DNA from: a bacterium
GTDB taxonomy: Bacteria; Patescibacteriota; Dojkabacteria; JAKAPS01; JAJZLI01
Direction of reading: 5' to 3'
DNA: 64,000 bases
NCBI GenBank assembly: GCA_021846685.1
Contig: JAJZWL010000004.1
Location: 7,899-71,898, forward strand
In this document: piece after piece, positions 11,209-40,791 of the stretch
How the letters are laid out: every line of letters starts with the position of its first letter
How positions within the stretch are numbered: position 1 is the first letter of the stretch
The notes under the pieces: generated by a model
Seen by the model: only the letters and a program-made list of their open reading frames with translations
Database searches by the model: none
What the model was told of the DNA's origin: nothing
Program-made: the position numbers and the translations under genes

Positions 11209-14179
11209 CTCTTTTAAGTAAAGAGTAAATTACTGGTACTATAAACAATGTTAGAATGGTAGATGTAAATAGTCCTCCTATAACTGTTATAGCCAAAGAT
11301 TGTCCTATTAAAGTTGAAGAAGAAGCAAATATTGCCAATGGGAGTAATGCAAACATAGTAGTAATTGCTGTCATAAGAATTGGTCGTAGTCTTATTTTTC
11401 CTCCCTGTATAATAGCTTCTTTTACTTCATACCCTTCTTTTATATTTTGTTTGATTTTAGTTAAAAGAACTATTGCATTAGTGACAACTATTCCTATAAG
11501 CATTAATACCCCTATTAGTGCTGGAAGATTTAGTGTTGATTTTGTTATAAATAAAGCTACTAAAACTCCTATTATAGTCACTGGTAAAGATGCAAGGATA
11601 GCAATAGGCTCTATAATTGAGGAGAAGGTGGCAATCATAATTATTAATACTATTGCAATTGATATCCCCATAGCTTCATATAATGAATTAAATGAATTTG
11701 CTTGTTCAGAAGAAGCTCCTTGATTAATAACTGAAACTCCATATTTTGAAATAGCGTCACTTATATCTGTATGTATTGTATTATTAACTTTTTCAGTATT
11801 ATTAGCAGTAATTAGAGCATTGATGTCAGAAGCTCTTTGTCCATTTTCATATGTAATACTAGAGTTGTATGGCACTTGAGATATATTAGATATCTTTGAT
11901 AGTGGAATTTTGCTGCCTAGTGAATTTGTTATTAATATATTATTAAGATTAGGTAAATTTTTCACATAAATATAGACATTATAACTTCCTCCATTAAGAT
12001 TATAATTTGAAATTTCACTTGGAGTAAAATATTGAGATATTTGGGATAGAACATTATATGAAGACACACTATATTTCGAAAGTTTAGTGTTATTTAATAT
12101 TATCTCTTTTTGATAGGTATCTTTTGAAAGATTAGATGTAAGATTACTTATTCCTTTTAAATTTTTTAATTTATTATATAAATAGTTATTAGCATTATAC
12201 AGTTTATTTTGATTATTAGAATTTATTATAATATTTACTGAATTAAGATTACCTACTGAAGATAGAAGATTAACTTGAGCTTTCAGGCCATTTATTTTAT
12301 TTGAAAAATTTTGAATATTGTATATTTCATTATTTATATTCTTATTATTATTAAAATCAACTAATATTTGAAATTTATTTTTCACTTGAGATGAGGTGGT
12401 TTTAATACCATGGCTTTGAGCTGATCCCACAGATATTGAATAAAATTGCACATTCTTTATAGTTTTAATATAGTTAGAAATTTGAATAGCTTTGTTATAT
12501 GTTAGTGTTTTGGAAGACCCTGTAGGTGTAGATCCTGATATTAAAGCAGAAGGTTGTGTTGGGGATGGTATGAATCCAGTCTGGATATGCGGAATTAATA
12601 ACAGTGAAGAGAGTATTAGAATTAAAGTAACTAAAATAGTAGAAATTTTGTGATTTATTGTAAAACGAACAGCACGTTCATAATATTTAGCCAGGAAAAA
12701 CTCTTTTTCTTTTAATTTGACATTCTTTTTTAATAAAAATGTTTTACTAAATAAAGGTATAACTATAATTGCAGTAAAAAGTGATGCTATTAAAGCAGAG
12801 GAAGCCGTAAATGCAAATGGAATAAAGAATGAAGATGTAATTCCTCCTACAAATGCAATTGGTAAGAATACCCCAATTGTTGTAAGAGTAGAAGATGTAA
12901 TTGCTCCTCCCACTTCTTTTACTGAGTTTATTATTAACTTTTCGTCTTTTACTTTATCTTGAGATAAGTGTCTGAAAGTATTTTCTATAACCACAATACT
13001 GTCATCAACAATTCTTCCAAGTGCCACAGAAAGTCCAGATAAAGACATTATGTTAAAGGTAATATTTTGGGCATTCATCAATGTTAATGTGAAGAATATT
13101 GATATTGGAATGGATATTGAAGCTATTAGAGTTGTATTTCCACTTTTTAAGAATGCAAAAATTATAATAACTGCTAAAAGTATACCAAGTATAGTTTCTT
13201 TTAGAATGCTATTTATAGTTGAGTTAATAGTATTTGTATCATTTGAAAGTATTGTATAACTGATTCCTTTTGGTAAAACACTTTTAACATTAGATAAAAT
13301 ATTTTGAATAGTACTAATAGTATTAATATTAGTTTTTCCAAATATATCTACTACATCAGAATTCTTTCCATTTGTTTGTACTATTTCATTGTTAAAGACT
13401 TTAGATATATTAACAGTAGCTATATTTTGAAGTTTTATCGTGTGTCCCTTATAAATAGCTAACGGAATATTCTCTAATTGTTTAATATTAGATATATTAG
13501 AATGAATTGTTATTGGTATAGATAGATTATTATTTTTAATCTTTCCAATAGGGGAATTGATATTATATGATTTAATTATATTTATAATATTTGAGTATTG
13601 TATATTATACTCATTTAATTTTTGATAATTCAGGTTTATATTTATTTCTTCTGTTTTATTCCCATAGTAACTTACGCTGCTTACTCCTGAAACATTATTT
13701 ATATTATTAAGTAATTTATTTTTTATAAAACTATCTCTATTTTTCCCAGAAAAAGAAAGCTCCAATATAGGAATATTAGAAAAATTAAATTTAGACATAG
13801 TTGGTCTTGTCGCACCATTAGGAAGTTTTACAGATCCTAAATCCTGATTTATTTGTTGTTCAAGAGTATTGAGATTAACTCCATAATGAGAAGTTATTAT
13901 TAAAGTTGTATAACCATTATTTGCATTTTCTTGTATTGATTTTATTCCACTAATTGATTTTATTGAGTTATAAATTGGTTGAGTAAGAGTTGTATATACT
14001 TCATTCGCGTTTGCAGAAGGATAATTAGACTCAACTATTACTGTAGAAAGATTTACATTAGGAAAAACCTCTCTATCAGCTACTATATAAGAGTATGTTC
14101 CAAACAAAATTAGAAATATTAATACTATAAATATTAAAGATTTATTTTTAAAAGAGTAAGAAACTATTTTTTCTATCAT
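11198..14179 (-). CDS. RND superfamily transporter permease (12-TM, two large periplasmic loops)
   Basis: 993 aa; N-terminal 'FPNVNLSTVIVESNYPSANANEVYTTLTQPI'; hallmark 'ALGRIVDDSIVVIENTFRHL' in the TM4 region; second-half 'RLRPILMTAITTMFALLPLAIF'. Confidence 0.8.
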   Translation of the reverse strand: MIEKIVSYSFKNKSLIFIVLIFLILFGTYSYIVADREVFPNVNLSTVIVESNYPSANANEVYTTLTQPIYNSIKSISGIKSIQENANNGYTTLIITSHYGVNLNTLEQQINQDLGSVKLPNGATRPTMSKFNFSNIPILELSFSGKNRDSFIKNKLLNNINNVSGVSSVSYYGNKTEEININLNYQKLNEYNIQYSNIINIIKSYNINSPIGKIKNNNLSIPITIHSNISNIKQLENIPLAIYKGHTIKLQNIATVNISKVFNNEIVQTNGKNSDVVDIFGKTNINTISTIQNILSNVKSVLPKGISYTILSNDTNTINSTINSILKETILGILLAVIIIFAFLKSGNTTLIASISIPISIFFTLTLMNAQNITFNIMSLSGLSVALGRIVDDSIVVIENTFRHLSQDKVKDEKLIINSVKEVGGAITSSTLTTIGVFLPIAFVGGITSSFFIPFAFTASSALIASLFTAIIVIPLFSKTFLLKKNVKLKEKEFFLAKYYERAVRFTINHKISTILVTLILILSSLLLIPHIQTGFIPSPTQPSALISGSTPTGSSKTLTYNKAIQISNYIKTIKNVQFYSISVGSAQSHGIKTTSSQVKNKFQILVDFNNNKNINNEIYNIQNFSNKINGLKAQVNLLSSVGNLNSVNIIINSNNQNKLYNANNYLYNKLKNLKGISNLTSNLSKDTYQKEIILNNTKLSKYSVSSYNVLSQISQYFTPSEISNYNLNGGSYNVYIYVKNLPNLNNILITNSLGSKIPLSKISNISQVPYNSSITYENGQRASDINALITANNTEKVNNTIHTDISDAISKYGVSVINQGASSEQANSFNSLYEAMGISIAIVLIIMIATFSSIIEPIAILASLPVTIIGVLVALFITKSTLNLPALIGVLMLIGIVVTNAIVLLTKIKQNIKEGYEVKEAIIQGGKIRLRPILMTAITTMFALLPLAIFASSSTLIGQSLAITVIGGLFTSTILTLFIVPVIYSLLKRVKQ

Positions 14180-22487: not shown

Positions 22488-23396
22488 ATGAAAATCTGTA
22501 TTTTTTCTAGATCAAATACTATCGAGGATGAAGCAATTAAGAGAGAATCTGAAAAAAGAGGTCATGAGTGTAGTATTATAAATCCAAAATCATTAATATT
22601 TAATTTTAGTGGTGATTTAAAAATTACTACCAATGAGGGTATAGATCTTACATATTTTGATGTTTTTGTACCTAGAGTATTTTCTATAACAGAAACAATA
22701 GAAGGAAAAAAATATAAAAGAAATTCCAAGAACCTTATTATTAAATATTTATTGGATCACGACAAGATATTTTTAGATAAAAATTATGACCACAAAAGGG
22801 AAACTCAGGGAAAAATATATCAGTTATCTAGATTTAACAACTTTCATATTCCTATATTTCCTACTGTTTTTTTATATAGAACAGATAAAAAATATATAGA
22901 AAGTTCATTATTACAAGCTAAAATAAATCCTCCATATATTATCAAAGATGTAGCTGGTTCAAAGGGAGAGAATATATTTAAATGTGATAGTGTAGATGAA
23001 ATTAAAGACAAGATTGAACAATATAATAATGTTTATTTTATGATTCAAGCATTTCATAAAATAGATCATGATTTGAGAATTTTAGTATTAGGCAATAGGG
23101 TATTAGGTGCAATAGAAAAAATTCATAAAAGTGGAGATTTTAAAGGTAATATTTCTCAAGGAGCAGATTCAAAAATTTTCAAGTTATCAAATGAATTAGA
23201 AACTCTAGCTTTAATGACAAATAATATTTTGCAATATGATTTTACTGGTGTAGATATTGCAATTGTGGGGAATAAAAATTATATTTTAGAAGTTAATGAG
23301 GTTCCTCAATTTAGAGGTTTTGTTGAAACTACTGGATTGAATGTAGCTTTAGAAATAGTTAAATATTTAGAATATTTATATAACACATCTTTATGA
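22488..23396 (+). CDS. RimK-like ATP-grasp ligase (alpha-L-glutamate ligase family), paralog 1
   Basis: 302 aa; 'GDFKGNISQGADSKIF' matches RimK 'DFRANLHRGG'; ATP-grasp 'ILEVNEVPQFRG' (E-x-N). Confidence 0.65.
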   Translation: MKICIFSRSNTIEDEAIKRESEKRGHECSIINPKSLIFNFSGDLKITTNEGIDLTYFDVFVPRVFSITETIEGKKYKRNSKNLIIKYLLDHDKIFLDKNYDHKRETQGKIYQLSRFNNFHIPIFPTVFLYRTDKKYIESSLLQAKINPPYIIKDVAGSKGENIFKCDSVDEIKDKIEQYNNVYFMIQAFHKIDHDLRILVLGNRVLGAIEKIHKSGDFKGNISQGADSKIFKLSNELETLALMTNNILQYDFTGVDIAIVGNKNYILEVNEVPQFRGFVETTGLNVALEIVKYLEYLYNTSL

Positions 23397-24313
23397 AAAT
23401 ATGTATAATTAATCACAATAATAAAAAGAATGATATTTCAAAAGGTCATAGAACAAAGTCTATATCAGCAGAGGCCTTTAAAAAAGGATATTCTGTAGAC
23501 ATTATTGATAGTTATGATTTAGTTTTTAGTTTTGATGAGAATTCTTCATTATCAATATCTACAATACAAGGAAATTCTCTATTAGATTATGATGCATATA
23601 TAATATATTCAGTAGGTATCATAGAAGATAAAAAGGCTAATATTGAAAAAGTCGTTATTGCAGATTATTTAATATTTCATAATAAATTAGTATTTAACTA
23701 TTCAGCTGTTATCTCTTCTGTATATAAGAGTAAGCTTTTAGATTTTTATAAAATGCAAAAGCTTGGAGTTCCTATTATAAAGACCTTTTACGTAGAAGAT
23801 CACAAAGATATTGAAAGTATTAAAAAAATCATAAAAGATAATGATTATATGTTCCCATTAATCCTTAAACCAGTTAATGGTACTCAAGGGCGGGATATAT
23901 ATAAAGTTCAAAATATAGATGAAATTGAAAATCTTATAATATCTCAAAAAAATAAGAGTTTTATGATTCAGGAATATATCCCAATAATCCATGATTTAAG
24001 AACTATTGTATTTTCTGGGGAAATATTAGGATCTATAGATAAAATTCCAATGAATGGCGATTTTAGGGGTAATATTTCACAAGGAGCTAAGGCAGTGGAA
24101 TATAAGCTTTCAGATGAACTAAAAGCTATATCATTAATGGTTGCAAATTCTTCAGGATCAGTTATATCGGGTGTGGATATATGTATTTCTAATAATAGTT
24201 ATTTTATTCTTGAAGTGAATGATAATCCAGAATTCAAAGGGTTTGCTAATTGCCTAAATATAAATGTTCCTCAAATTATTCTAAATTATCTAGAAAAATT
24301 TCAAATTAATTAA
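23393..24313 (+). CDS. RimK-like ATP-grasp ligase, paralog 2 (tandem duplicate)
   Basis: 306 aa; 'GDFRGNISQGAKAVEYKL', 'ILEVNDNPEFKG'; both paralogs start MKICI; 4-nt overlap. Confidence 0.65.
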   Translation: MKICIINHNNKKNDISKGHRTKSISAEAFKKGYSVDIIDSYDLVFSFDENSSLSISTIQGNSLLDYDAYIIYSVGIIEDKKANIEKVVIADYLIFHNKLVFNYSAVISSVYKSKLLDFYKMQKLGVPIIKTFYVEDHKDIESIKKIIKDNDYMFPLILKPVNGTQGRDIYKVQNIDEIENLIISQKNKSFMIQEYIPIIHDLRTIVFSGEILGSIDKIPMNGDFRGNISQGAKAVEYKLSDELKAISLMVANSSGSVISGVDICISNNSYFILEVNDNPEFKGFANCLNINVPQIILNYLEKFQIN

Positions 24314-24400: not shown

Positions 24401-24430
24401 GTGGTGATAAGTGGTGATAAGTGGTGATAG
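24401..24430 (+). promoter_or_regulatory. Candidate MraZ operator: three tandem 10-bp direct repeats GTGGTGATAA/GTGGTGATAA/GTGGTGATAG
   Basis: Perfect 10-bp periodicity of GTGGT + 5-nt spacer just downstream of the -10 box and upstream of mraZ; matches the known MraZ architecture of GTGGG-like direct repeats with 5-nt spacers. Confidence 0.6.
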
Positions 24431-24446
24431 TTTATACAATAAGTTT

Positions 24447-24881
24447 ATGTTAATAGGAGAATATACATCTAAATTACAAGATAAAAATAGGATAGCAATG
24501 CCTAAGAAATTTAGATCTGAGATTGGGGATAAGATAATCATCACTAAAGGGTATGAGAATTGTTTAATAGTAGTGCCTGAAAATAAATGGGATTTGATGG
24601 TTAAAGATATAGTATCAAGACCTTTTACAATAACAAATGCACGGGATACTTCGAGGTTTATATTAGGATCTGCAGCTGAAGCATATTTAGATGATCAAGG
24701 ACGATTTGTAATTCCTCAAACATTAATATCGCATGCAGAATTGGATGGAGAAGTTTCATTTTTAGGATTAGTCTCTTGGATTGAAATTTGGAGCAGCATA
24801 AAGTGGAAAGAGAGAGAAAGTTATTTAAGAGATAATGGTGCAAATATAGCAGATGAGTTGTCAAAATTAGATGTATCATGA
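24447..24881 (+). CDS. mraZ: Transcriptional regulator MraZ
   Basis: 'MLIGEYTSKLQDKNRIAMPKKFR' and second repeat 'YLDDQGRFVIPQTL' (two DXXXR-type SpoVT/AbrB-like halves); the track ORF starts at 24411 inside the operator repeats, so the start is moved to the MLIGEY Met. Confidence 0.8.
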   Translation: MLIGEYTSKLQDKNRIAMPKKFRSEIGDKIIITKGYENCLIVVPENKWDLMVKDIVSRPFTITNARDTSRFILGSAAEAYLDDQGRFVIPQTLISHAELDGEVSFLGLVSWIEIWSSIKWKERESYLRDNGANIADELSKLDVS

Positions 24882-25782
24882 CACAGTTCTTTTACAAAAT
24901 ATAATAAATGAGCTTGAAATCAAAGAAAAGGGGGTATATGTAGATACTACTTTAGGAGGAGGAAGTGTAAGTTTTGAAATACTTAATAGGCTTAAAGGTG
25001 GAAATCTCATTAGTCTTGATATAGATACAGATGCTATTAATAATTTTAAATTAGAATTTGAAAAGAAATATAGCAAAAAATTTATATCAAATAGTATGAC
25101 TTTAGAAAGCAATACTATAACTCTAGTAAATGAGAATTTTTCAAAGCTAAAAGAGATTATACTCAATTTAGGTAAGGAAAAGTTAAAGATAAATGGAATA
25201 ATTTATGATTTAGGGGTTTCATCCTTTCAAATAGATAATCCTAAAAAAGGATTTAGCTATATGTCAGATTCTGATTTAGATATGAGAATGGACAAAAGAT
25301 TGAAAGTTACTGCCCGAGACCTCTTAAATGGAATGTATGAAAAAGAATTGAGTAGTATGTTTGAGAGATATTCTGAAGAACCCTTTTCAAAAGACATAGC
25401 AAGAAATATTGTAAAGTTCAGAAAAACAAAAAGTATAGAGAGGTCTAGTGATTTGGTATCAATAGTAAAGAGAAGTATTAGAGGTCAAGCTTATCTCTAT
25501 CACCATGTATCAAGAATATTTCAGGCATTAAGAATCAAAGTTAACAATGAGTTGGGCGTTTTGAGTGATTCTCTGCTTCTTTTGCCTGATATTCTTGAGA
25601 GTGGTGGTAGAGTAGTATTTTTAACTTATCATTCTGGAGAGGATAGAATTATAAAACACTATTTTCTCCACAATGATAACTTTATATCTTTGTATAAAAA
25701 ACCTGTGACTCCTAGTGATGAAGAAATTTCAAAAAATAGGAGAGCTAGGTCAGCTAAAATGAGAGTATATGAAAAAAAATAA
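24871..25782 (+). CDS. rsmH: 16S rRNA m4C1402 methyltransferase RsmH (MraW)
   Basis: 'YHDTVLLQNIINEL', 'VYVDTTLGGGSVSFEIL', 'FLTYHSGEDRIIK' (RsmH FHSLEDR motif). Confidence 0.85.
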   Translation: MYHDTVLLQNIINELEIKEKGVYVDTTLGGGSVSFEILNRLKGGNLISLDIDTDAINNFKLEFEKKYSKKFISNSMTLESNTITLVNENFSKLKEIILNLGKEKLKINGIIYDLGVSSFQIDNPKKGFSYMSDSDLDMRMDKRLKVTARDLLNGMYEKELSSMFERYSEEPFSKDIARNIVKFRKTKSIERSSDLVSIVKRSIRGQAYLYHHVSRIFQALRIKVNNELGVLSDSLLLLPDILESGGRVVFLTYHSGEDRIIKHYFLHNDNFISLYKKPVTPSDEEISKNRRARSAKMRVYEKK

Positions 25783-26071
25783 AAAATCTAACAAAATATT
25801 ATTAACACTTATATTTACGCTATTTTTAATAGTTGTAGGTCAATTGTATCTAATGAATAATATAGATTCATATAATTATACTGTAGAAAGATTAATATCT
25901 CAGTATAATACATATAATGTAAAGAATCAGAATCTTCAAGGAGAAATCTCTTCAAATCAATCATTAATTAGTATTAAAAATAATCTTTTGAAAAAGGGAT
26001 ATAAAAATGTAAATAACGTTAACTATACTCCTTCTAATGCATATAGTTTTAATGTATCATCATCCAAATGA
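25769..26071 (+). CDS. FtsL-like small bitopic cell-division protein
   Basis: 100 aa, one TM 'ILLTLIFTLFLIVVGQLYL'; positioned between rsmH and ftsI. Confidence 0.4.
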   Translation: MKKNKKSNKILLTLIFTLFLIVVGQLYLMNNIDSYNYTVERLISQYNTYNVKNQNLQGEISSNQSLISIKNNLLKKGYKNVNNVNYTPSNAYSFNVSSSK

Positions 26072-27789
26072 ATAGTGATTTATTTAAGAAAAAGGCATTT
26101 TTCTTAATTTTAATAGTGTTTATTGCATTTTTGATTTTAATAGTAAAATTATTTGATCTTCAAGTATTAAATAATGCACAGTACTCTATTGAAGCATCTG
26201 CGGAAAATTCTTTTTTAACTAGTATGCCTGCATTACGAGGTATTATCGAGAGTTCAACTGGAAGTATACTTGCAGATAATACTCCAGTATATAAAGTATA
26301 TGTTTCTTTAAATAATGTAGTAAACAAAAAAAGTTTTGAAAATGAAGTATATTCTGTTTTAGGAATAAAAAAAAGCTATATGCAATCACTATTTAATAGT
26401 AAATTAGTTTGGGTAAAATTATCTTCAGATATAAGTATTTCTCAAAAAAATAAATTATCGAATCTTCCATCTTTAACATTTGTGCAATATGAAAGTCGTT
26501 ATTATCCAAATAAACAATTATTTGCACATGTATTAGGATTTTTGGGTAGAGATTATAAAGGTCAAGTGAGTGGTTTTTATGGAGTAGAAGGTTATTTTAA
26601 TGGAGCTCTTGTTGGAAAAGCAGGATATACAAAAGGTATTCAATCTGCTTCTGGTATTCCTTTACTTTCTCAAAATTATCAATTTGTTCCTGCTCAAAAT
26701 GGAGATACTATTAAATTAACTGTAAATCCAGCAATTCAAAATATTGTGTCTTCTAGTGTAAATTATTGGTCTAAAAAAGAGAATGCAACTTCAGGTGCTG
26801 CTATTGTAATGAATCCTAAAACAGGTGCAATTTTGGCAATGGCCAGTTACCCTAGTTTTAATCCAAATACATATTGGAAATATAAATATTCTAATTTTCA
26901 AAATAATGCAATTTCTTTTATTTATGAACCAGGTTCTGTTGGTAAATTAATTACTGTGTCTGCTGCTTTACAAACAGGAGCAATGACTCCAAGTACAACA
27001 GTAAATGATAAAACTGGAGTATTTTCAGTTGGAGGGCAAAATATATATAACTGGAATAAAGCCCCTGATGGAGTAATGAATTTAGGAAGGATACTTCTTT
27101 TATCTTCTAATGTGGGAGCTAGTATGGTGGCAACTCAATATCTTTCTTCAAAGTTGATGTATGAATTTTCAAAAAAATATGGATTTGGAAATTTAACAGG
27201 AATAACTTTACAGGGAGAAGAAACTGCTAACATCCCACCATATAAGACTTGGAACAAATCTAATCTTGCTACTGATTCATTTGGACAATTTGTATCAGTA
27301 TCTCCATTACAGATATTAGATGCTTATGATGCTCCTGCAAATGGAGGTAAAATTATGCAACCTTATATAGTACAAAGTATTACTAATTCAAAAGGATCTA
27401 CTGTAAATTTTAAACCTAAAGTTCTATATAATCCTATCTCTCCTACTGTTGCTTCAGAAATTAATACTATGCTTGTAGGTACTACCCAAGGAGAACCAAA
27501 TTGGGCTTTACATAAAGAAGGTGTTGGGCAATATATGCCTATTATTGCAGGTAAAACGGGTTCTGCCCAAATGCCATCTAAAAAACATCCAGGACAGTAT
27601 AGTACTACTAATTATGTTATGACATATGTGGCCTATGCTCCAGCCAATAATCCTAAATTTATACTTTTAACAATGATGAATTCTCCCCATAAACCATTAT
27701 TGAATCAATACTATGCAGCAACTACTGCTTGTGTAGAGTGGGGACAGATAGCTTCAAAATTATTCCCATATTTTGGGATTGCTCCTTAA
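26068..27789 (+). CDS. ftsI: Class B penicillin-binding protein (FtsI/PBP2-type transpeptidase)
   Basis: 573 aa; N-terminal TM; SxxK 'GSVGKLITVS', SxN 'LLLSSNVGA', KTG 'AGKTGSAQ'. Confidence 0.85.
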   Translation: MNSDLFKKKAFFLILIVFIAFLILIVKLFDLQVLNNAQYSIEASAENSFLTSMPALRGIIESSTGSILADNTPVYKVYVSLNNVVNKKSFENEVYSVLGIKKSYMQSLFNSKLVWVKLSSDISISQKNKLSNLPSLTFVQYESRYYPNKQLFAHVLGFLGRDYKGQVSGFYGVEGYFNGALVGKAGYTKGIQSASGIPLLSQNYQFVPAQNGDTIKLTVNPAIQNIVSSSVNYWSKKENATSGAAIVMNPKTGAILAMASYPSFNPNTYWKYKYSNFQNNAISFIYEPGSVGKLITVSAALQTGAMTPSTTVNDKTGVFSVGGQNIYNWNKAPDGVMNLGRILLLSSNVGASMVATQYLSSKLMYEFSKKYGFGNLTGITLQGEETANIPPYKTWNKSNLATDSFGQFVSVSPLQILDAYDAPANGGKIMQPYIVQSITNSKGSTVNFKPKVLYNPISPTVASEINTMLVGTTQGEPNWALHKEGVGQYMPIIAGKTGSAQMPSKKHPGQYSTTNYVMTYVAYAPANNPKFILLTMMNSPHKPLLNQYYAATTACVEWGQIASKLFPYFGIAP

Positions 27790-27830
27790 AACTTGATAAA
27801 TAGTTCTTTTTTTGCAATAATTTTCTCTAT

Positions 27831-29123
27831 ATGTATAAATTTGAAATAGAAGGACAACATCCTTTGTCTGGGGAAGTAAGTTTATTAGGTGGAAAAAATA
27901 ACGTCATTCCTATAATTTGTGCTACATTATTAACAGATCAACCTTGTATTATTAAAAATATTCCCAAAATATCTGATGTTAGAGTTTTAATAAAAATATT
28001 AAGAATTCTCGGATCAGACATAAAGTATATTACTCCTTCAGAACTTAAGATTGTTAATAAAAATTTATCTATAGATAAAGATAAAGAAAAATTAATATTT
28101 GAAAATATTCAAAAAATGAGAGGTTCTATATTATTAATAGCACCATTACTTTATAGATTTAAAAATATCTCATTTATACATCCAGGAGGGGATAAAATAG
28201 GAGGAAGAGATCTCTCTGCTCATTTTTCTGGATTCAAAAAACTTGGTGTAAATATTGAATTTACAAATACTAATTTTTCTCTTTCTGGTAATCTAAAACC
28301 TAATTATATCTTCTTATATGAACCATCAGTTACTGCAACAGAAAATCTTCTAATGCTAAGCGCTATTATAAAAGGAGAATCAATTATTGAAAATGCAGCC
28401 TGTGAACCTCATGTAAAAGATTTATGTATAATGCTAACCAAAATGGGTGTGCAGATTGAAGGAATCGGTACAAATATTTTAAAAATTAAAGGAGATCAAA
28501 ATCTATCTGGAGTAGACTTTACAGTATCTTCAGATGAAATTGAGGCTGCAACCTATATTATATTTGCGTTAATGTCTAAAGGTGAGATAAAAATACAAAA
28601 TATAGATACATTTGTTATGAAATCAATTTTTTATGTATTTGATATGTTTAATATAAAATATACAATTGGAGATAATTATATTTATATTAAAAATAAACAA
28701 GATTTATATTATAAAGGTAGTTTAGGATTTGGTAATTTAGGTATATATACCCATCCATATCCTGGGTTCCCTACAGATCTTCTGTCATTAGTGATATCAT
28801 TAGCTACGCAAGTTAAAGGTGAAGTAATATTTTTTGAAAAAATGTATGAGAATAGAATAGATTTTGCACTAGAACTGAAAAAAATGGGTGCAACATTTAA
28901 TATACTAGATACTCATAGAATTTTAGTAAAAGGCCCAGTAAAACTTCACTCAGCTAATATTTTTTCTAGAGATATAAGATCAGGAGTTGCTTATCTTTCT
29001 GCTATGTTATCTGCATCTGGTATAAGCACTTTAACTGGTATAGAAAATATAGATAGAGGATATCCTAATATTGAAAAAACATTAGATAGTCTAAATGCTA
29101 AAGTTAAAAGAATAAAGATATGA
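27831..29123 (+). CDS. murA: UDP-N-acetylglucosamine 1-carboxyvinyltransferase MurA
   Basis: 430 aa; 'FEIEGQHPLSGEVSLLGGKNNVIPIICATLL' matches the MurA N-terminal signature; EPSP-synthase fold length. Confidence 0.85.
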   Translation: MYKFEIEGQHPLSGEVSLLGGKNNVIPIICATLLTDQPCIIKNIPKISDVRVLIKILRILGSDIKYITPSELKIVNKNLSIDKDKEKLIFENIQKMRGSILLIAPLLYRFKNISFIHPGGDKIGGRDLSAHFSGFKKLGVNIEFTNTNFSLSGNLKPNYIFLYEPSVTATENLLMLSAIIKGESIIENAACEPHVKDLCIMLTKMGVQIEGIGTNILKIKGDQNLSGVDFTVSSDEIEAATYIIFALMSKGEIKIQNIDTFVMKSIFYVFDMFNIKYTIGDNYIYIKNKQDLYYKGSLGFGNLGIYTHPYPGFPTDLLSLVISLATQVKGEVIFFEKMYENRIDFALELKKMGATFNILDTHRILVKGPVKLHSANIFSRDIRSGVAYLSAMLSASGISTLTGIENIDRGYPNIEKTLDSLNAKVKRIKI

Positions 29124-29896
29124 AAAAAAGTTTAAGAAAAGTTATAAAAACTATTTTATCTAAATATTCAAAATTATTAATCCTAAAACATAGAATAAAA
29201 TTTATTACTATTTTTGGAAATTATAATCAAGATGTTGCAGTGGAGGGTATCTACTCAATACTTAAAGATAATGGAGTTAAGACGAGCCGTAATTATGTAG
29301 ATTTTGAAAAAGATATTGATGTTTCTTATTTTATTATAACTGATAAAGAAAATTTTACTTTTTTCGGATTCTTATATCTTTTAATAAAATATCCCATTAC
29401 TCTCTTTTCTAAGAAATATGATGATAAAGTAATAATATTAAATTTATCTACTTTTAATCCAGGAGTTGTTAAATATTATTCTGAATTTATACATTCTGAT
29501 ATCTTTTTACTCTTAGATGTTACTAAAAAATCTGTAATTTATGAAGATCAAATAATGAAAGATTCTCAAAAAGAAGCAATTGTTATAATCGATGGAGATA
29601 CTTCTTCTAGAAAAATGATAACCTTTGATTTTAATAAAAAAATATTAAGTTTTGGTACAAATCCTAGTAATGACATAATGTATAAAACATCTGCTTCAAA
29701 AATAGATATTACGTATAATGAGAACCATATAGAAATTCAGAATAATTTTAAAAATATAGATCCTAGAATACTTATAGCTTGTTTACTTACTAGTATTTCA
29801 TATGGAATTAGTTTTCATAATGCTGTTTCAAGTCTAGAAAAATTTTATATGCCAAATAGAGACTTTCAAAAAGTTTTTGAAAAATTCATGAAATAA
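29120..29896 (+). CDS. Hypothetical protein, possibly a degenerate Mur-ligase-like domain with a lost P-loop
   Basis: 258 aa; 'ITIFGNYNQD' sits where Mur ligases have GTNGKTT; a C-terminal A/S/G-rich helix resembles the Mur ligase middle-domain end; no intact ATP-binding motif. Confidence 0.25.
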   Translation: MKKSLRKVIKTILSKYSKLLILKHRIKFITIFGNYNQDVAVEGIYSILKDNGVKTSRNYVDFEKDIDVSYFIITDKENFTFFGFLYLLIKYPITLFSKKYDDKVIILNLSTFNPGVVKYYSEFIHSDIFLLLDVTKKSVIYEDQIMKDSQKEAIVIIDGDTSSRKMITFDFNKKILSFGTNPSNDIMYKTSASKIDITYNENHIEIQNNFKNIDPRILIACLLTSISYGISFHNAVSSLEKFYMPNRDFQKVFEKFMK

Positions 29897-29921
29897 GTAT
29901 ATTGTAGTATAGTATTAATAT

Positions 29922-31154
29922 ATGAAAAAGATATATCATTATTTGAAATCTAATGTATTGAGAGTGCCATTTATATTTGATAGATATAAATGTAAATTTA
30001 TAGCAGTTACAGGTACTGATGGGAAGACGACTGTATCAACATTATTGTATGATATGATGAAGAATGAAGGATTAAAAGTGGCATGTTTTACTACAATAGG
30101 TATAACTTATCCTGAAGGATTTATAGATACTGGGCTTCATACCACAACATTAGATACTCTTGAATTAAGAAAAAATCTTAAAAAATTTAAAAATTATGAT
30201 TTTGTAATCTTAGAAACAACTTCTCATGCTATTGATCAAAATAGAATTGCTGGATTAAAATTTAGTGCTATTTTATATACTAATATAACAGAAGATCATC
30301 TAGATTATCATAAAACTTGGGATAGATATGCATATGCCAAATCTAAATTAAAAAATTATTTAACTCATTCTGGTTTTGCTGTCATTAATATGGATGATGA
30401 AAAATCATTTAAATACCTAACAAATAGATTTACAAATATAAATTGCTATACATATTCTGTATATAAAAAAAATGCAACAATTAAAGCATTTAATGTGACA
30501 GAAAACAGTTTTGATGTTAAATTGGAAAATAAGACTTACTCTTTTAAAACTAAACTTTTTGGTGAATATAACATACAAAATTCATTACTATGTATATTTA
30601 CTGCATTAAAATTTGATATAAATGAATCTAGTATTCAAAAAAGTTTGCTATATCCTCCTTCAATAGAAGGTAGATTTGATGTTGTATCAAAAAAACCACT
30701 TATTATAGTAGATTTTGCACATACTGCTAATGCAATATATAATATCTTAGAAAATTTATCTGTTCTTAAAAAAAATGGTAAAAATAGATTAATTACAATT
30801 TTTGGTGCACCAGGAGATAGAGATAAATTTAAAAGACCTGATATGGGTAAAAATGCCTCTCTTTTTTCAGATATCATAATTATAACTGAAGATGATCCTC
30901 GTTTTGATAACCCAAAAGATATCTATACAGATATTGTACAGAATATAGATACTAAACTCTTTAAAAAAAATATTAATTTATATCAAATCGACAAGAGGGC
31001 AGATGCAATTAATTTTGCTTTAAAAATAGCACGAAAAAATGATATTATTGCAGTTTTAGGAAAGGGTCATGAAAAATCATTAGCAATCAAGGGAAAAGAA
31101 ATTCCTTGGTCAGATAAAGAATTTATTTTAAAAAAAATAAAAAATGGAAAATAA
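29922..31154 (+). CDS. murE: Mur ligase, MurE-like central + C-terminal domains (no recognisable N-terminal domain)
   Basis: 410 aa; P-loop 'AVTGTDGKTT' at residue ~30; 'GLHTTTLDT', 'ETTSHAIDQNR', 'TNITEDHLDYHKTWDRYAYAKSKL', 'DFAHTANA'. Confidence 0.6.
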   Translation: MKKIYHYLKSNVLRVPFIFDRYKCKFIAVTGTDGKTTVSTLLYDMMKNEGLKVACFTTIGITYPEGFIDTGLHTTTLDTLELRKNLKKFKNYDFVILETTSHAIDQNRIAGLKFSAILYTNITEDHLDYHKTWDRYAYAKSKLKNYLTHSGFAVINMDDEKSFKYLTNRFTNINCYTYSVYKKNATIKAFNVTENSFDVKLENKTYSFKTKLFGEYNIQNSLLCIFTALKFDINESSIQKSLLYPPSIEGRFDVVSKKPLIIVDFAHTANAIYNILENLSVLKKNGKNRLITIFGAPGDRDKFKRPDMGKNASLFSDIIIITEDDPRFDNPKDIYTDIVQNIDTKLFKKNINLYQIDKRADAINFALKIARKNDIIAVLGKGHEKSLAIKGKEIPWSDKEFILKKIKNGK

Positions 31155-32541
31155 AAGAATACATTTTATAGGTATATGCGGAAGTGCTATGGCTCCTATT
31201 GCCGTAGAAATGAAAAATAAAGGATTTAATGTTTCAGGTTCAGATAAAGGATTTTTCCCTCCTATATCTTTATATCTTGAAAAACACAATATGGGGATCC
31301 AACTCGGATATAAAAAAGAGCATATCACAGATGATATTAGTTTTGTTATTTTAGGAAATACTGTAGGAGAAAAGAATCCAGAATTTCTTGAAGCTAAGGA
31401 GAAAAATATACCAATATTGTCATATCCAGAACTTTTAGAACAATATCTTGTAAAAGAAAATTCAATTGTAATTACAGGTGAATATGGAAAGACAACTATA
31501 ACGTCATTTTTAGCTTTTGTATTTTCTAAGTTGAATATAAATCCTTCATATATGTATGGTGGAATATCTTTGAATCTTGATGATAGCGTAAAAATAAATG
31601 ATTCTAATTATTCAATTATTGAAGGAGATGAATATAATGCATCTCCAATAGATAAAAATTCCAAATTTCTATATTATCATCCCAAATATTTAATATTAAC
31701 ATCACTTTTGTGGGATCATGTAGATTTATTCCCAAAAGAATCTGATTATATTGATTCATTTAAAAAACTTATCTTAAAATTGCCAGAAGATGGTATTCTT
31801 TTTATTAATAAAGATGATATCAGTACTAATAAAATCTATCCTATATCTAATAAAAATATAAAAATCATAAATTATTCTGTTAAAGATAAAAGTACAGAAT
31901 ATTATGGTGAAATTGTAGAATATAAAGATGGTGTAATCAAATTTTTGGTTAATAATACCTATAAATTTGAAACACCTCTCTTGGGAGAACATAATATATC
32001 TAATCTTGTTGCAGGAATATCTCTGTGTCTTACACTTGGTATTGAATACAATAATTTATATTCAGTAGTCAAAGAATTTTTAGGAGCAAAAAGAAGATTG
32101 GAAATAAGATATAGATCAGATAAACTAATTGTTATTGATGATTTTGCTCATTCTCCTTATAAAATCAAAGCTTCAATCCAAGCTGTAAAAAAAAGTTTTC
32201 CAAATTCTAATATTATCTCAATTTTCGAACCACATTCTATGAGTTCAAGAGATAAAAAAACAATACAGTGGTATGAAAATATTTTTAATAATTCAGATAA
32301 AGTTATAATTACTGATATATATAAAAAAGAAGCTTTATCAGAAATCACAAGATTAAATAGTGAAGATATAGTTAAAGTAGTAAGAAATAATGTTCAAAAC
32401 ACTATATATACAAAGAATATAGATCTTATTGATTCAATAGAATCATCATTAACAGGGAATGATATAGTTTTATTTATGTCTTCTGGAAGTTTTCAAGGTA
32501 TGTTAGAGAAATATGTAAATAAACTAATTAGTTCTAAATAA
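31144..32541 (+). CDS. murC: UDP-N-acetylmuramate--L-alanine ligase MurC (or Mpl-type murein peptide ligase)
   Basis: 465 aa; 'IHFIGICGSAMAPIAVEMKNKGFNVSGSD' MurC N-terminal Rossmann; 'ITGEYGKTTITS' P-loop. Confidence 0.75.
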   Translation: MENKRIHFIGICGSAMAPIAVEMKNKGFNVSGSDKGFFPPISLYLEKHNMGIQLGYKKEHITDDISFVILGNTVGEKNPEFLEAKEKNIPILSYPELLEQYLVKENSIVITGEYGKTTITSFLAFVFSKLNINPSYMYGGISLNLDDSVKINDSNYSIIEGDEYNASPIDKNSKFLYYHPKYLILTSLLWDHVDLFPKESDYIDSFKKLILKLPEDGILFINKDDISTNKIYPISNKNIKIINYSVKDKSTEYYGEIVEYKDGVIKFLVNNTYKFETPLLGEHNISNLVAGISLCLTLGIEYNNLYSVVKEFLGAKRRLEIRYRSDKLIVIDDFAHSPYKIKASIQAVKKSFPNSNIISIFEPHSMSSRDKKTIQWYENIFNNSDKVIITDIYKKEALSEITRLNSEDIVKVVRNNVQNTIYTKNIDLIDSIESSLTGNDIVLFMSSGSFQGMLEKYVNKLISSK

Positions 32542-34745: not shown

Positions 34746-35447
34746 TTGATTTATATGAATAAGTTATTCGATATCTCTATTGTCAATTCTATTGTCGATA
34801 AATTTTACAATATTGATGGCAATGCACTGGATTCGAATAAAAATATATATACTCTAGATGAATTATTCGCAAAATTAAATGAAAATGAATGTAATCTTAT
34901 ATATTCTTTTTTATCTATTAATCCTTATGATTATGGATTTAAAGGTAAATTCTTGGGGATATTTCCAGTTCCAAAAAAGCTTGTCATCATAAAAGATCAA
35001 AAATATATAATAGATGGGGAAGAAATGCAAATTGTACCCCAATATTGTCCAAAAGAGGTTTATATTCATTTCGTTAAAATGATTGATGAAATGGATAAAG
35101 ATATAGGAAAAACATTACTGGTAGATTCTTGTTATAGGTCCCCTGCTAGTCAGATATTAACATTCTTATTTTTTTTGAAGTATCATGATTTCGATTTTAC
35201 TCATACTATTTCGTTAGTAGCATTTCCTGGATATAGTGAACATGGAGATCCTGTGCATCAGGCAATAGATGTAATAACTACTGAAGGTTTACCTAAGAGA
35301 GAAAATCCACAAGATTTTGAAAATACAATTGAATATAAGTGGTTAATGAATCATGCTAACAAATTTAATTTTTATTTATCTTATCCTAAAAATAATAAAG
35401 AGGGTATAGCTTTTGAACCTTGGCATTGGAAATATGTTATAAAGTAA
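34746..35447 (+). CDS. VanY-like D-alanyl-D-alanine carboxypeptidase (peptidase M15)
   Basis: 233 aa; 'SEHGDPVHQAIDV' and C-terminal 'FEPWHWKYV' (M15 zinc-binding EPWHW). Confidence 0.7.
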   Translation: MIYMNKLFDISIVNSIVDKFYNIDGNALDSNKNIYTLDELFAKLNENECNLIYSFLSINPYDYGFKGKFLGIFPVPKKLVIIKDQKYIIDGEEMQIVPQYCPKEVYIHFVKMIDEMDKDIGKTLLVDSCYRSPASQILTFLFFLKYHDFDFTHTISLVAFPGYSEHGDPVHQAIDVITTEGLPKRENPQDFENTIEYKWLMNHANKFNFYLSYPKNNKEGIAFEPWHWKYVIK

Positions 35448-38499: not shown

Positions 38500-40791
38500 A
38501 TGTTTAAAAATTTCAAATTAAAATATGGTCATTTAATAATAACTGTATTCGTAACGTTAAATATAATTTTTTTAGCTATTGTAGCTTCAAGTCCCTTTTT
38601 TGCAAACAAGTCAAATGTGCAATTGCATGCAGCTCCTGTATGTAATTTAAGTGGGAATCATGCATATTTTGCATCAGTTGCTGTTGTAGTAAAGTCATCT
38701 AATCCATCAGTAGCTTTACCTGCGAATATGGGTTTATCTCTTAAGACAGGTCAATGTACTAATGGTTGGGATAATGGTCTTCCTTGGGCATCAGGTTATA
38801 ATAATAATTATCAAGATCCTTTTCTATATGCTCCTCAAATAGCTTCAGGTCCAGTTTCTCCTGAACAGATTAGTGCATATCATTCTAGAACTGGAAATGC
38901 TCCTATAACTTATCAACAGATTAATTCAATAAATGTTGGTGGTAGTGGTCCAAATGGAACTACTACTCCTTATAACTGTTCATCTATTACAGCTTGTTCT
39001 CATGTGGGTGGAAATATAACTAGAATTGAAACTGGCTCCAGTCAGGTAACTTTGAAATATTATCAAATTATTGATTGTGCATTTTCTCCAGTAACATATA
39101 GTCTTGCAGGACTTCCTCAAGGATGGTCTGCTAATCCTAGTACTAATACTGTAAATGTAGTCAATGGTACATCTTTACCAACTTATACAATAACTGTTAC
39201 TCCACCAACACCTACAATTAGTGTTGCTCTGAACTGTAATGGTGCTCAATGGTCTACTTCAAATACAAATTCTAATGCAGCTATTACAGGGACTATAGTA
39301 AATACACAAAATAATCAAGTAGTAGCAAATATCAATACTCAAACAAACCCTGATTCTGGTTTTGTATCAAGTCTTTTGACCAGTAATCAAAATTATATAG
39401 CATCAATGCAAGTGACTGATAACGGGGCATCGGATACTGCTAAGTCGACTCCTTTCAATTTTTATAGTTGTGCTAATCATACTCCGGTATTGACAGTAGC
39501 TTTGTCTTGTCAAGGTGTTTCATGGAATACGTCCAATGTATCTTCTCCTACTGTTTCTGGAAATATATTAAATTCTCAAAATCAGGTAGTTGCAAGTATT
39601 AATACTCAAAATCAAGCAAATGGTTCAAGTAATTCTTTTGTAAATGGATTAGAGTATGGTCAAACAGGTGCTAGTTATACTGCACAAATGACTGTGGCAA
39701 GTGAAGGTCAATCAACAAAGGCTACATCTAATAGTGTTATATATTCAAATTGTCTAAGTTTTAAACCTACTTTATCTGTATCTTTGAGTTGTAATGGAGC
39801 TACTTGGGAAGGAACAAATCTTAACGGAGGAAGTACTTTAACTGGGAATGTAACAGATACAACAACTAATCAAAGTGTATATACTATTCCTCAGGAAAGT
39901 ATAGGTTCTTATAAATCTCAATTTAATGGTTCTGAAAATTCATTTGTATCAGGTTTGGTAAATAGTCAAAATAGTTATACAGCATTAATAACACTTACTA
40001 ATAATGGAAGCGTTGTTTCTCAAAAATCTTCAGCTGTAAGTTTTTATAACTGTGTAACTCATATGAAAACTCCAGTACTTAATACTGTTACTCTAAGTTG
40101 TATTACAAATTCTAGTAATTTAGGAATTAATTGGACTTATGATAATACAACTACAAATAGTACTGATTTATTCTATGGATCAATAGAAGATGCTTCAACT
40201 AATAATAATGTTGTTGCTACATTCTCTTCTCCTTTAACAACAGGTTATACCTGGAATGGAGCTAATACAAAGGATTCTTATATAATTGTAGGTTATATAA
40301 AAGGTGTAAATGGACAAAGTAATAATATAACTTCTTCTTCCTCTAGTGTTTCAGATTGTCTTACACCTCAAGTTCCAGTAATGTCATCGATCTCACTTGC
40401 TTGTGAAAATAATACTACAAACAATTTAACTATCGCATGGCAGGCTAATAATGTAACTAGTTCAGATAGTTTTAATGGGGTTATAACTGATACAACTACT
40501 GGTCAACAAGTATATGATATCCCTAATACTCCAGCACAATTAGGTGAATATATTTGGCAAGGTGCTAATGGTAAAGATAGTTATACAATTACAGGTTGGT
40601 TAGTTAACTCTTCTGGACAAAAATTCAATGTAACTACAAGTGTTGCAGTTTCAAGCAATTGTATTCCCCAGAAAGCAGTAGCTCCTATAGTACAAACTTT
40701 ACCTCAAACTTCAGGAGGTGCTCCTATAAATGTATTTGTAGTAGCTGGATTGATAATACTATCAATTGGTGTATCTGTAATGATATTCTAA
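38500..40791 (+). CDS. Large S/T/N-rich surface protein with five tandem ~95-aa Cys-pair modules and a C-terminal LPQTS + hydrophobic anchor
   Basis: 763 aa; N-terminal signal/TM; modules start 'L(S/N/A)C(N/Q)G..W' and end 'FY(S/N)C'/'SNC'; C-terminus 'LPQTSGGAPINVFVVAGLIILSIGVSVMIF'. Confidence 0.6.
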   Translation: MFKNFKLKYGHLIITVFVTLNIIFLAIVASSPFFANKSNVQLHAAPVCNLSGNHAYFASVAVVVKSSNPSVALPANMGLSLKTGQCTNGWDNGLPWASGYNNNYQDPFLYAPQIASGPVSPEQISAYHSRTGNAPITYQQINSINVGGSGPNGTTTPYNCSSITACSHVGGNITRIETGSSQVTLKYYQIIDCAFSPVTYSLAGLPQGWSANPSTNTVNVVNGTSLPTYTITVTPPTPTISVALNCNGAQWSTSNTNSNAAITGTIVNTQNNQVVANINTQTNPDSGFVSSLLTSNQNYIASMQVTDNGASDTAKSTPFNFYSCANHTPVLTVALSCQGVSWNTSNVSSPTVSGNILNSQNQVVASINTQNQANGSSNSFVNGLEYGQTGASYTAQMTVASEGQSTKATSNSVIYSNCLSFKPTLSVSLSCNGATWEGTNLNGGSTLTGNVTDTTTNQSVYTIPQESIGSYKSQFNGSENSFVSGLVNSQNSYTALITLTNNGSVVSQKSSAVSFYNCVTHMKTPVLNTVTLSCITNSSNLGINWTYDNTTTNSTDLFYGSIEDASTNNNVVATFSSPLTTGYTWNGANTKDSYIIVGYIKGVNGQSNNITSSSSSVSDCLTPQVPVMSSISLACENNTTNNLTIAWQANNVTSSDSFNGVITDTTTGQQVYDIPNTPAQLGEYIWQGANGKDSYTITGWLVNSSGQKFNVTTSVAVSSNCIPQKAVAPIVQTLPQTSGGAPINVFVVAGLIILSIGVSVMIF

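Follow-up and report, generated by a model that had tools for sequence, protein, structure and literature searches.

What does a Mur ligase-like protein without a P-loop do in the middle of a peptidoglycan gene cluster? This question is raised by a division and cell wall (dcw) cluster on contig JAJZWL010000004.1 (assembly GCA_021846685.1), which lies within an analysed stretch of 64,000 nucleotides referred to here as the window. The G+C content of the window is about 27%, and its proteins have their nearest named relatives in Patescibacteria, or candidate phyla radiation (CPR) bacteria. Eight co-oriented open reading frames (ORFs) are found on the plus strand at positions 24411-32541, in the order mraZ-rsmH-(ftsL-like)-ftsI-murA-ORF258-murE-murC. 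An earlier reading made from the DNA letters alone (the sequence-only reading) had proposed this order, which is confirmed here, with ftsL assigned from position only. It had also singled out two of the products: a 258-residue Mur ligase-like protein with no P-loop (ORF258) and a 410-residue MurE-like protein without the N-terminal UDP-binding domain. Both descriptions are borne out by the present analysis. For ORF258, two origins had been suggested, a decayed Mur ligase paralog or an N-terminal partner of the MurE-like protein supplied in trans. We find that ORF258 (29120-29896, plus strand) is a MurF paralog cut to an N-terminal linker helix and a degenerate Mur-ligase central domain, with neither domain 1 nor domain 3. 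We are highly confident that it is a dead MurF-derived domain kept under selection, and we call it pseudo-MurF. It belongs to an unannotated and previously undescribed family that is conserved in dcw clusters of Dojkabacteria-like CPR bacteria.

The kinship of the ORF258 family with Mur ligases was revealed only by comparison of folds. No Pfam match was obtained for ORF258 at E ≤0.1, including PF08245 (Mur_ligase_M) and PF02875 (Mur_ligase_C), nor for 30 members of its family at E ≤0.01. With the MurF model TIGR01143, only the central domain was aligned, and the score (15.6 bits, E 0.006) stayed far below the cutoff of 288.6. Before the fold comparison, a sequence profile of the close family had been searched against the PDB sequences and had given no match even at E 10. 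Structural modelling of ORF258 and of the MurE-like protein was the check that the sequence-only reading had proposed, and it had allowed that ORF258 might prove to have no structural similarity to Mur domains. The two models turned out to resemble a Mur central domain, with MurF as the best match, and E. coli MurE (1e8c), respectively. In the AlphaFold2 (AF2) model of ORF258 (predicted local distance difference test score, pLDDT, 76; predicted template modelling score, pTM, 0.80), the central-domain fold of the Mur ligase superfamily, built on a mononucleotide-binding sheet, is recognisable by structure. Its best match in Foldseek is the MurF structure 4qf5_B (E 2e-9; template modelling score over the query, TMq, 0.69). 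The top seven matches are all MurF, and they are followed by MurE, MurC, MurD, MurT and others. There were 121 PDB fold matches at E ≤1e-3, and 50 of the 50 matches listed belong to the Mur family, namely MurF, MurE, MurC, MurD, MurT, Mpl, cyanophycin synthetase and the plant protein PAP11.

The closest kin of ORF258 were identified among CPR bacteria themselves. A search with the family profile retrieved 224 relatives, which fall into two groups. One is the pseudo-MurF family, comprising about 100 clusters of constant length (about 250-270 residues). The other consists of proteins of 400-445 residues, which align from their own residue 1 and are catalytic CPR MurFs without domain 1. These short MurFs have the P-loop at residues 31-37 and the motifs GVPLT, LEMGADKPGD, TN..HLE and DDSYNANP, and those that have a name in their source are annotated as MurF, as in Falkowbacteria. 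Compared with canonical MurF, domain 1 (about 95 residues) is absent from both the short MurFs and ORF258. When 30 ORF258-family members were compared with 12 CPR short MurFs by hhalign, the two alignments matched with a probability of 99.95 and an E-value of 1.6e-37. This match covers residues 1-257 of ORF258 and 1-270 of the short MurF, ending at the hinge between domains 2 and 3; against short MurEs, the E-value was only 2.8e-10. ORF258 is nearer to MurF than to the other Mur ligases. It shares with the short MurFs the N-terminal helix, the central-domain fold and the register, together with a hydrophobic helical insertion of about 25 residues. A multiple alignment with canonical MurF places this insertion after the GVPLT motif in ORF258 and the CPR short MurFs, and it is absent from canonical MurF. 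It occupies residues 78-98 of ORF258 (ENFTFFGFLYLLIKYPITLFS; 29351-29413, plus strand), with a helix at residues 81-94 of the model, and it marks the descent of ORF258 from the CPR short-MurF lineage. The insertion was also noticed at about residues 75-100 in the proteins P0161, P0165, P0203 and P0206, and W83 is invariant in the catalytic short MurFs. The N-terminal helix common to CPR short MurFs and pseudo-MurFs is basic and amphipathic. These two elements, the helix and the insertion, may replace domain 1 or serve for membrane attachment.

The pseudo-MurFs differ from the short MurFs in everything that concerns catalysis. The residues invariant in the 12 catalytic short MurFs are K37, N62, E107, D111, T131, H137, N167 and all those of domain 3, and every one of them is replaced or missing in ORF258-type proteins. 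The losses comprise the P-loop lysine, the Mg-binding glutamate of the LE(M) motif, the PGD, TN..H and N.DD motifs and the whole C-terminal domain 3. The EK motif has gone with a deletion of 12 residues, and the DDSYNANP motif is absent from ORF258, which ends at the domain 2/3 hinge. The degenerate P-loop of ORF258, IFGNYNQD (residues 31-38; 29210-29233, plus strand), is aligned by hhalign onto ITGSxGKT of the catalytic short MurFs. The lysine is missing in 30 of 30 aligned family members, and the pattern GxxGK(T/S) is not found. Because the P-loop lysine, the Mg-binding glutamate, the His/Asn motifs and domain 3 are lost, ORF258, as far as its residues tell, cannot be a conventional ATP-dependent amino-acid ligase.

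However, ORF258 is not a dying gene. The suggestion of a decayed Mur ligase paralog was right about the parentage, which is MurF, and wrong about the decay, since the protein is conserved and its ratio of nonsynonymous to synonymous substitution rates (dN/dS) is low. Ten close homologues (257-283 residues) are 42-100% identical to ORF258, and 52 columns are invariant among 10 close homologues of 42-76% identity. Length and register are kept even where identity between family members falls to about 20-25%. Between the genomes of three close relatives within Dojkabacteria, pseudo-MurF has a dN/dS of 0.02-0.04, which is indistinguishable from that of MurA, FtsI and the adjoining sigma factor. Residues kept in both subfamilies include G33, the E42/Y45 helix, and D65 and P69 of the MurF NxE-G-P substrate loop. 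In addition, the protein ends with a clade-specific tail, PNRDFQKVFEKFMK (29852-29893, plus strand), which is near-invariant among the 10 close homologues and in the window's clade reads PNRDFQKVFEKF(V/M)K. The tail sits at the position of the MurF hinge to domain 3, and residues 247-258 are modelled with pLDDT <50. Because a conserved tail with such low pLDDT is typical of motifs that fold upon a partner, it is a candidate docking motif. In databases, members of the family are named hypothetical or, by the Joint Genome Institute (JGI), 'UDP-N-acetylmuramyl pentapeptide synthase'. Literature searches on Dojkabacteria peptidoglycan, on MurF in CPR, Patescibacteria or WS6, and on Mur pseudoenzymes returned no description of MurE or MurF without domain 1 or of a dead MurF paralog.

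The position of the pseudo-MurF gene is also conserved. One genome per GTDB species was scanned with the motif of the Dojkabacteria-type pseudo-MurF sub-alignment, and this gave 21 loci, most of them titled Candidatus Dojkabacteria or candidate division WS6. The neighbourhood counts that follow combine these loci with metagenome contigs. The gene is fixed between murA (where present) and murE (with or without a preceding sigma factor gene) in 27 loci. Of the Dojkabacteria/WS6 loci, 23 are long enough to show the order of genes, and in 23 of 23 it is (mraZ-rsmH-ftsL-ftsI)-murA-pseudoMurF-sigma-murE. The sigma factor, encoded for example at L004:10896-11450 and L033:6748-7302, is of the extracytoplasmic function (ECF) type, with 109 bits for TIGR02937 and the BldN and SigM families as its nearest relatives. 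Its gene often overlaps both pseudo-MurF and murE in Dojkabacteria, or lies 0-100 nt from pseudo-MurF. The clade of the window (the window, L001/L002 and L006) has murA-pseudoMurF-murE-murC with no sigma gene, and no homologue of the sigma factor was detected by tblastn (E <1e-6) within 84 kb around the window locus. Two variants were found: L009 is without murA, and L033 has ftsI-pseudoMurF-sigma-mraY with no adjacent murE. A Woykebacteria locus has ftsI followed directly by the short murE, with no ORF258 homologue. P0294 is a MurF of the ordinary kind, whose dcw cluster is canonical and has no pseudo-MurF. L006:1-8669, a relative of 55% identity, carries a giant ORF of >3,600 aa before murA-pseudoMurF-murE-murC. 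Because this ORF stands in place of mraZ-ftsI, the mur sub-block appears to move as a unit. Some of the loci carry unexpected titles. L024 (LNGD01000166.1) is a 2.9-kb contig with murA-pseudoMurF-sigma in an archaeal metagenome-assembled genome named Candidatus Methanofastidiosum, and is probably a mis-binned CPR contig. Several Dojkabacteria-type loci (L016, L017, L018, L025, L030 and L032) bear the title 'uncultured Candidatus Saccharibacteria'. In WS6 bacterium OLB20 (L026:6915-8578, 11361-12660), ftsI and murE are split in two or three pieces, probably by assembly frameshifts and not by gene decay.

Is the neighbouring gene, murE, itself intact? MurE is the UDP-MurNAc-L-Ala-D-Glu:diamino-acid ligase. 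The 410-residue product of the gene (29922-31154, plus strand) consists of domains 2 and 3 only. It matches the MurE model TIGR01085 with 346.4 bits (cutoff 257.3) over model positions 82-469, and aligns to residues 96-479 of T. maritima MurE and 108-486 of E. coli MurE (PDB sequences). Because the alignments start at model position 82 and at residues 96-108 of the PDB MurEs, domain 1, which binds the UDP moiety in solved MurEs, is missing. About 95-105 N-terminal residues are thus absent, and the protein does not have the three-domain form. In the AF2 model (pLDDT 88) a single helix at residues 2-17 precedes the P-loop strand. The model matches E. coli MurE 1e8c in Foldseek with an E-value of 2e-35, and its TM-score is lower over the longer target (TMt 0.71) than over the query (TMq 0.85). 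Over domains 2 and 3, TM-scores of 0.85-0.86 were reached with MurE of E. coli and S. aureus, and the best fold matches are all MurEs. The sequence-only reading had allowed that the protein might be a FolC- or CapB-type ligase. It scores far better as MurE than as FolC (52.4 bits against TIGR01499, cutoff 162.65) or as cyanophycin synthetase (121 bits, cutoff 850), and no DUF1727 (MurT) or CapB match was found in Pfam and NCBIfam. Its ten best PDB sequence matches are all bacterial MurEs (one a MurE-MurF fusion) or a plant MurE-like protein. The P-loop, GTDGKTT, was read from the sequence at residues 31-37 (30012-30032, plus strand), where the sequence-only reading had placed it at about residue 30. 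It is invariant in a 15-sequence alignment of the clade, as are E98, TN..H126LDYH, K140 and D325-P326-R327. By these residues, the protein reads as a true and catalytically intact MurE without domain 1, and it presumably works on its own.

Such MurEs also occur well beyond the window. Of the 120 best homologues, about 100 have a length of 380-460 residues and only the middle and C-terminal Pfam domains; Woyke-, Blackburn-, Curtiss- and Dojkabacteria are among their named sources. MurE without domain 1 is, by this census of sequences, widespread in CPR bacteria. An NTP_transferase/IspD-like nucleotidyl-transferase domain is fused to the short MurE, or follows it immediately, in certain CPR bacteria, as in P0043 (686 aa), P0069 (672 aa) and L003:6001-8027. 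Residues 324-327 of the window's MurE (30891-30902) are DDPR, not the DNPR of meso-diaminopimelate-adding enzymes. T. maritima MurE, whose entry 4bub was deposited as LD-lysine ligase, has DDPR as well, and because of this likeness the third residue of the stem peptide may be lysine.

If ORF258 is dead, which protein performs the MurF reaction? MurF is the UDP-MurNAc-tripeptide:D-Ala-D-Ala ligase. When short and canonical MurFs were used as tblastn queries against the window and 33 loci, only murE, murC and pseudo-MurF were matched. No catalytic MurF was found in the window, in 20 kb of additional contig or in the 10-kb flanks of 30 related loci. A Ddl gene (Dala_Dala_lig_C) is located on the same contig at L010:14715-15701, about 13 kb to the left of the window, which itself encodes a VanY/VanXY-like D,D-peptidase (34746-35447). 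This gene content indicates that the organism makes and trims D-Ala-D-Ala termini. Ddl and the VanY-like peptidase, together with a transpeptidase, lead us to expect MurF activity. Catalytic short MurFs are frequent among CPR bacteria, and one is likely to be encoded elsewhere in the genome; a genome truly devoid of catalytic MurF is quite unlikely. It is no more probable that these lineages as a whole lack catalytic MurF, with the dead single-domain protein as their only MurF-family gene. If that were so, another enzyme would add D-Ala-D-Ala, or the pathway would have a different layout in which pseudo-MurF presents the substrate. A candidate for such an alternative ligase would be an ATP-grasp enzyme, for example one of a RimK-type pair beside the dcw cluster of the window. 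The genes of these RimK-family ATP-grasp paralogs (22488-23396 and 23393-24313, plus strand) are arranged in tandem with a 4-nt overlap, immediately before mraZ. With 124 and 134 bits, the two proteins fall slightly short of the TIGR00768 cutoff (143). No such pair precedes mraZ in the loci of Dojkabacteria or Woykebacteria. Since ATP-grasp enzymes elsewhere add branch or C-terminal amino acids, a cell-wall link of this pair is conceivable.

What, then, is the role of pseudo-MurF? We consider, with a probability of roughly 0.6, that it is a non-catalytic MurF-derived partner, acting as scaffold or sensor, in cytoplasmic synthesis of peptidoglycan precursors. A binding partner is favoured because residues of the substrate loop are kept and the clade-specific tail is conserved. 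Pseudo-MurF would be co-produced with MurA and MurE from one operon, as suggested by the overlapping or abutting start and stop codons, and it would hold a Mur enzyme and/or UDP-MurNAc-peptide, and in this way organise or tune the flux. Alternatively, it would serve as a sensor of UDP-MurNAc-peptide. That it binds precursors or regulates is a tentative proposal, and that it is a pure scaffold is doubtful. In the Dojkabacteria sister family, the output may be transcriptional, possibly anti-sigma-like, a suggestion that comes from the ECF sigma gene invariably adjoining pseudo-MurF there. Several points weigh against this assignment. The retained residues of the substrate loop could be purely structural. 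The neighbours differ by clade, with the sigma gene present in 23 of 23 Dojkabacteria loci and in 0 of 3 loci of the window's clade, and murA is not beside pseudo-MurF in L009 and L033. The partner thus varies between clades, and therefore the gene neighbourhood implies no single partner. Finally, if these genomes had no catalytic MurF, a purely accessory role would be too modest.

The constant company of the sigma gene has led us to consider a more specific explanation, in which pseudo-MurF is an anti-sigma-like sensor that releases the co-encoded ECF sigma factor when UDP-MurNAc-tripeptide accumulates. Transcription of envelope genes would then be tied to precursor supply, in the window's clade perhaps through an unlinked sigma gene. 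ECF sigma factors are normally co-transcribed with their cognate anti-sigma factor. In the 23 Dojkabacteria/WS6 loci, the sigma gene is immediately downstream of pseudo-MurF and the operon has no other anti-sigma candidate, and PAP11 sets a precedent for a Mur-ligase fold on RNA polymerase of the bacterial type. However, the window, L001 and L006 have no sigma gene at this site, the window locus has no homologue within the 84 kb searched, Pfam recognises no known anti-sigma domain in ORF258 or 30 family members, and some ECF sigma factors have no anti-sigma factor. We regard this explanation as unlikely. Far less credit is due to the proposal that ORF258 is the missing UDP-binding N-terminal module of the short MurE, provided in trans, which does not survive the structural comparison. 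The two genes are indeed neighbours on one strand, with a gap of 25 nt in the window and either no gap or a one-base overlap in L001 and L006, and MurE does lack domain 1. Nevertheless, the fold and register of ORF258 are those of MurF domain 2 and not of any Mur domain 1. Moreover, short MurEs are widespread in CPR groups in which no ORF258 homologue was found, such as Woykebacteria, the sigma gene separates the pair in Dojkabacteria, and pseudo-MurF of L033 has no adjacent murE. Such a role is highly improbable.

The apparent lack of murF around these loci could also mean that ORF258 is part of an active but unorthodox MurF, the sole enzyme adding D-Ala-D-Ala, with a non-P-loop site and a C-terminal domain from another protein. 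The need for MurF function, set by Ddl, the VanY-like peptidase and the transpeptidase, would agree with this idea, as would the name given to family members by JGI pipelines. On the other hand, every invariant ATP/Mg-binding and acyl-phosphate residue is lost and the 12-residue EK-motif segment is deleted. The absence of murF concerns only the small part of each genome that was inspected, and the frequency of catalytic short MurFs in CPR speaks against it as well. This idea is therefore very unlikely, if slightly less so than a module in trans. The loss of the catalytic motifs and domain 3, together with the failure of any family model to match, would suit a functionless, decaying remnant. 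A remnant would hardly be expected to keep an intact frame and a constant length in every relative, the 52 invariant residues of the close clade, dN/dS of 0.02-0.04 and a position fixed across lineages at about 20-25% identity, and we find this explanation barely credible.

Known systems offer partial parallels to the non-catalytic partner that we favour. In plants, the Mur-ligase fold of PAP11 has been recruited as a structural subunit of the bacterial-type plastid RNA polymerase (PMC11561172). PAP11 is among the Foldseek matches of ORF258, and its Mur-ligase fold serves a structural role outside peptidoglycan synthesis; for ORF258, too, the role would be a non-enzymatic one. However, PAP11 is eukaryotic, derived from MurE and possesses all Mur domains plus extra folds, whereas ORF258 is bacterial, single-domain and derived from MurF. 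Domain 1 is also lacking in MurT of the MurT/GatD complex, FolC, CapB and the M-domain of cyanophycin synthetase, which have the two-domain (middle and C-terminal) or a related form, and MurT is among the structural matches of ORF258. These proteins are active on substrates without UDP, whereas ORF258 is inactive and has no C-terminal domain. In the MurE-MurF fusion of Bordetella (PDB 8f5d), which is matched by both ORF258 and the short MurE, the bodies of MurE and MurF are physically coupled. There, two full active enzymes are fused in the order MurE-MurF; here, the proteins are separate, encoded in the order pseudoMurF-MurE, one of them is dead and their coupling is putative.

The remaining genes of the cluster, with one exception, were identified by Pfam and NCBIfam profile matches. 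The conserved block begins with mraZ (24411-24881, plus strand; PF02381, E 3e-23), whose GTG start was taken from the ORF finder, and the true start may be an ATG a few codons downstream. It is followed on the same strand by rsmH (mraW; 24871-25782; PF01795, E 2e-81, full length) and by an ORF of 100 codons (25769-26071), which has no Pfam or NCBIfam match. Its product is a putative FtsL-like small membrane protein by position and size only, with a hydrophobic segment at the N-terminus, and an ORF of 100-120 aa is present at the same place between rsmH and ftsI in all related loci. The ftsI gene (26068-27789, plus strand) encodes a class B penicillin-binding protein with PBP_dimer and Transpeptidase domains, which resembles SpoVD and PBP2. 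Next come murA (27831-29123, plus strand; TIGR01072, 402.6 bits, cutoff 392.7), ORF258 and the short murE. The block ends with murC (31144-32541, plus strand), a full three-domain form matched by PF01225, PF08245 and PF02875 and by TIGR01082 (306.8 bits over positions 1-445 of 449). The TGA stop of murA overlaps the ATG of ORF258 as ATGA, and because of this overlap TGA is a stop codon here; an alternative genetic code is ruled out, since the murA alignment ends at this TGA. The ATG of murE is 25 nt past the TAA of ORF258. A read-through or frameshift fusion of ORF258 and murE was likewise rejected, as the two are in different frames with the TAA between them and the conserved C-terminus of ORF258 reaches its stop.

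The head mraZ-rsmH-ftsL-ftsI, followed by mur genes on one strand, identifies the block as a dcw cluster, and about 25 related loci share this head and gene order. The sequence-only reading had noted that mraY, murD, murG and ftsW are not in the block. Indeed, these genes and murF were found neither in the 64-kb window (Pfam search of ORFs ≥120 aa) nor in the 10 kb of the same contig past either end of it, and tblastn with MraY, FtsW, MurG and MurF queries did not find any of these genes in the window. The same reading had called the cluster non-canonical with murA, the gene for the first committed step, embedded. The gene is inside the cluster, but its presence there is not exotic, because murA is among the 17 genes of the dcw cluster reconstructed for the bacterial ancestor (PMC8871954). 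As a whole, the layout is usual in this CPR lineage. Elsewhere in the window are an rve-type integrase (49221-50483, minus strand), a Fic-domain protein (53373-54452, plus strand) and a 763-aa ORF (38500-40791, plus strand) with no Pfam match at E ≤1e-5.

These results bear on how the cell wall of Dojkabacteria-like CPR bacteria is reconstructed and understood. Given the JGI naming, a dead protein may be entered as MurF in metabolic reconstructions of these bacteria. In large parts of CPR, the common form of MurE and MurF seems to be one without the UDP-binding domain 1, and recognition of UDP-MurNAc-peptide without domain 1 bears on the design of inhibitors directed against domain-1 contacts. 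Ultra-small bacteria have few regulators. A pseudo-enzyme encoded between MurA, an ECF sigma factor and MurE is a candidate link between precursor supply and enzyme organisation or transcription in such cells.

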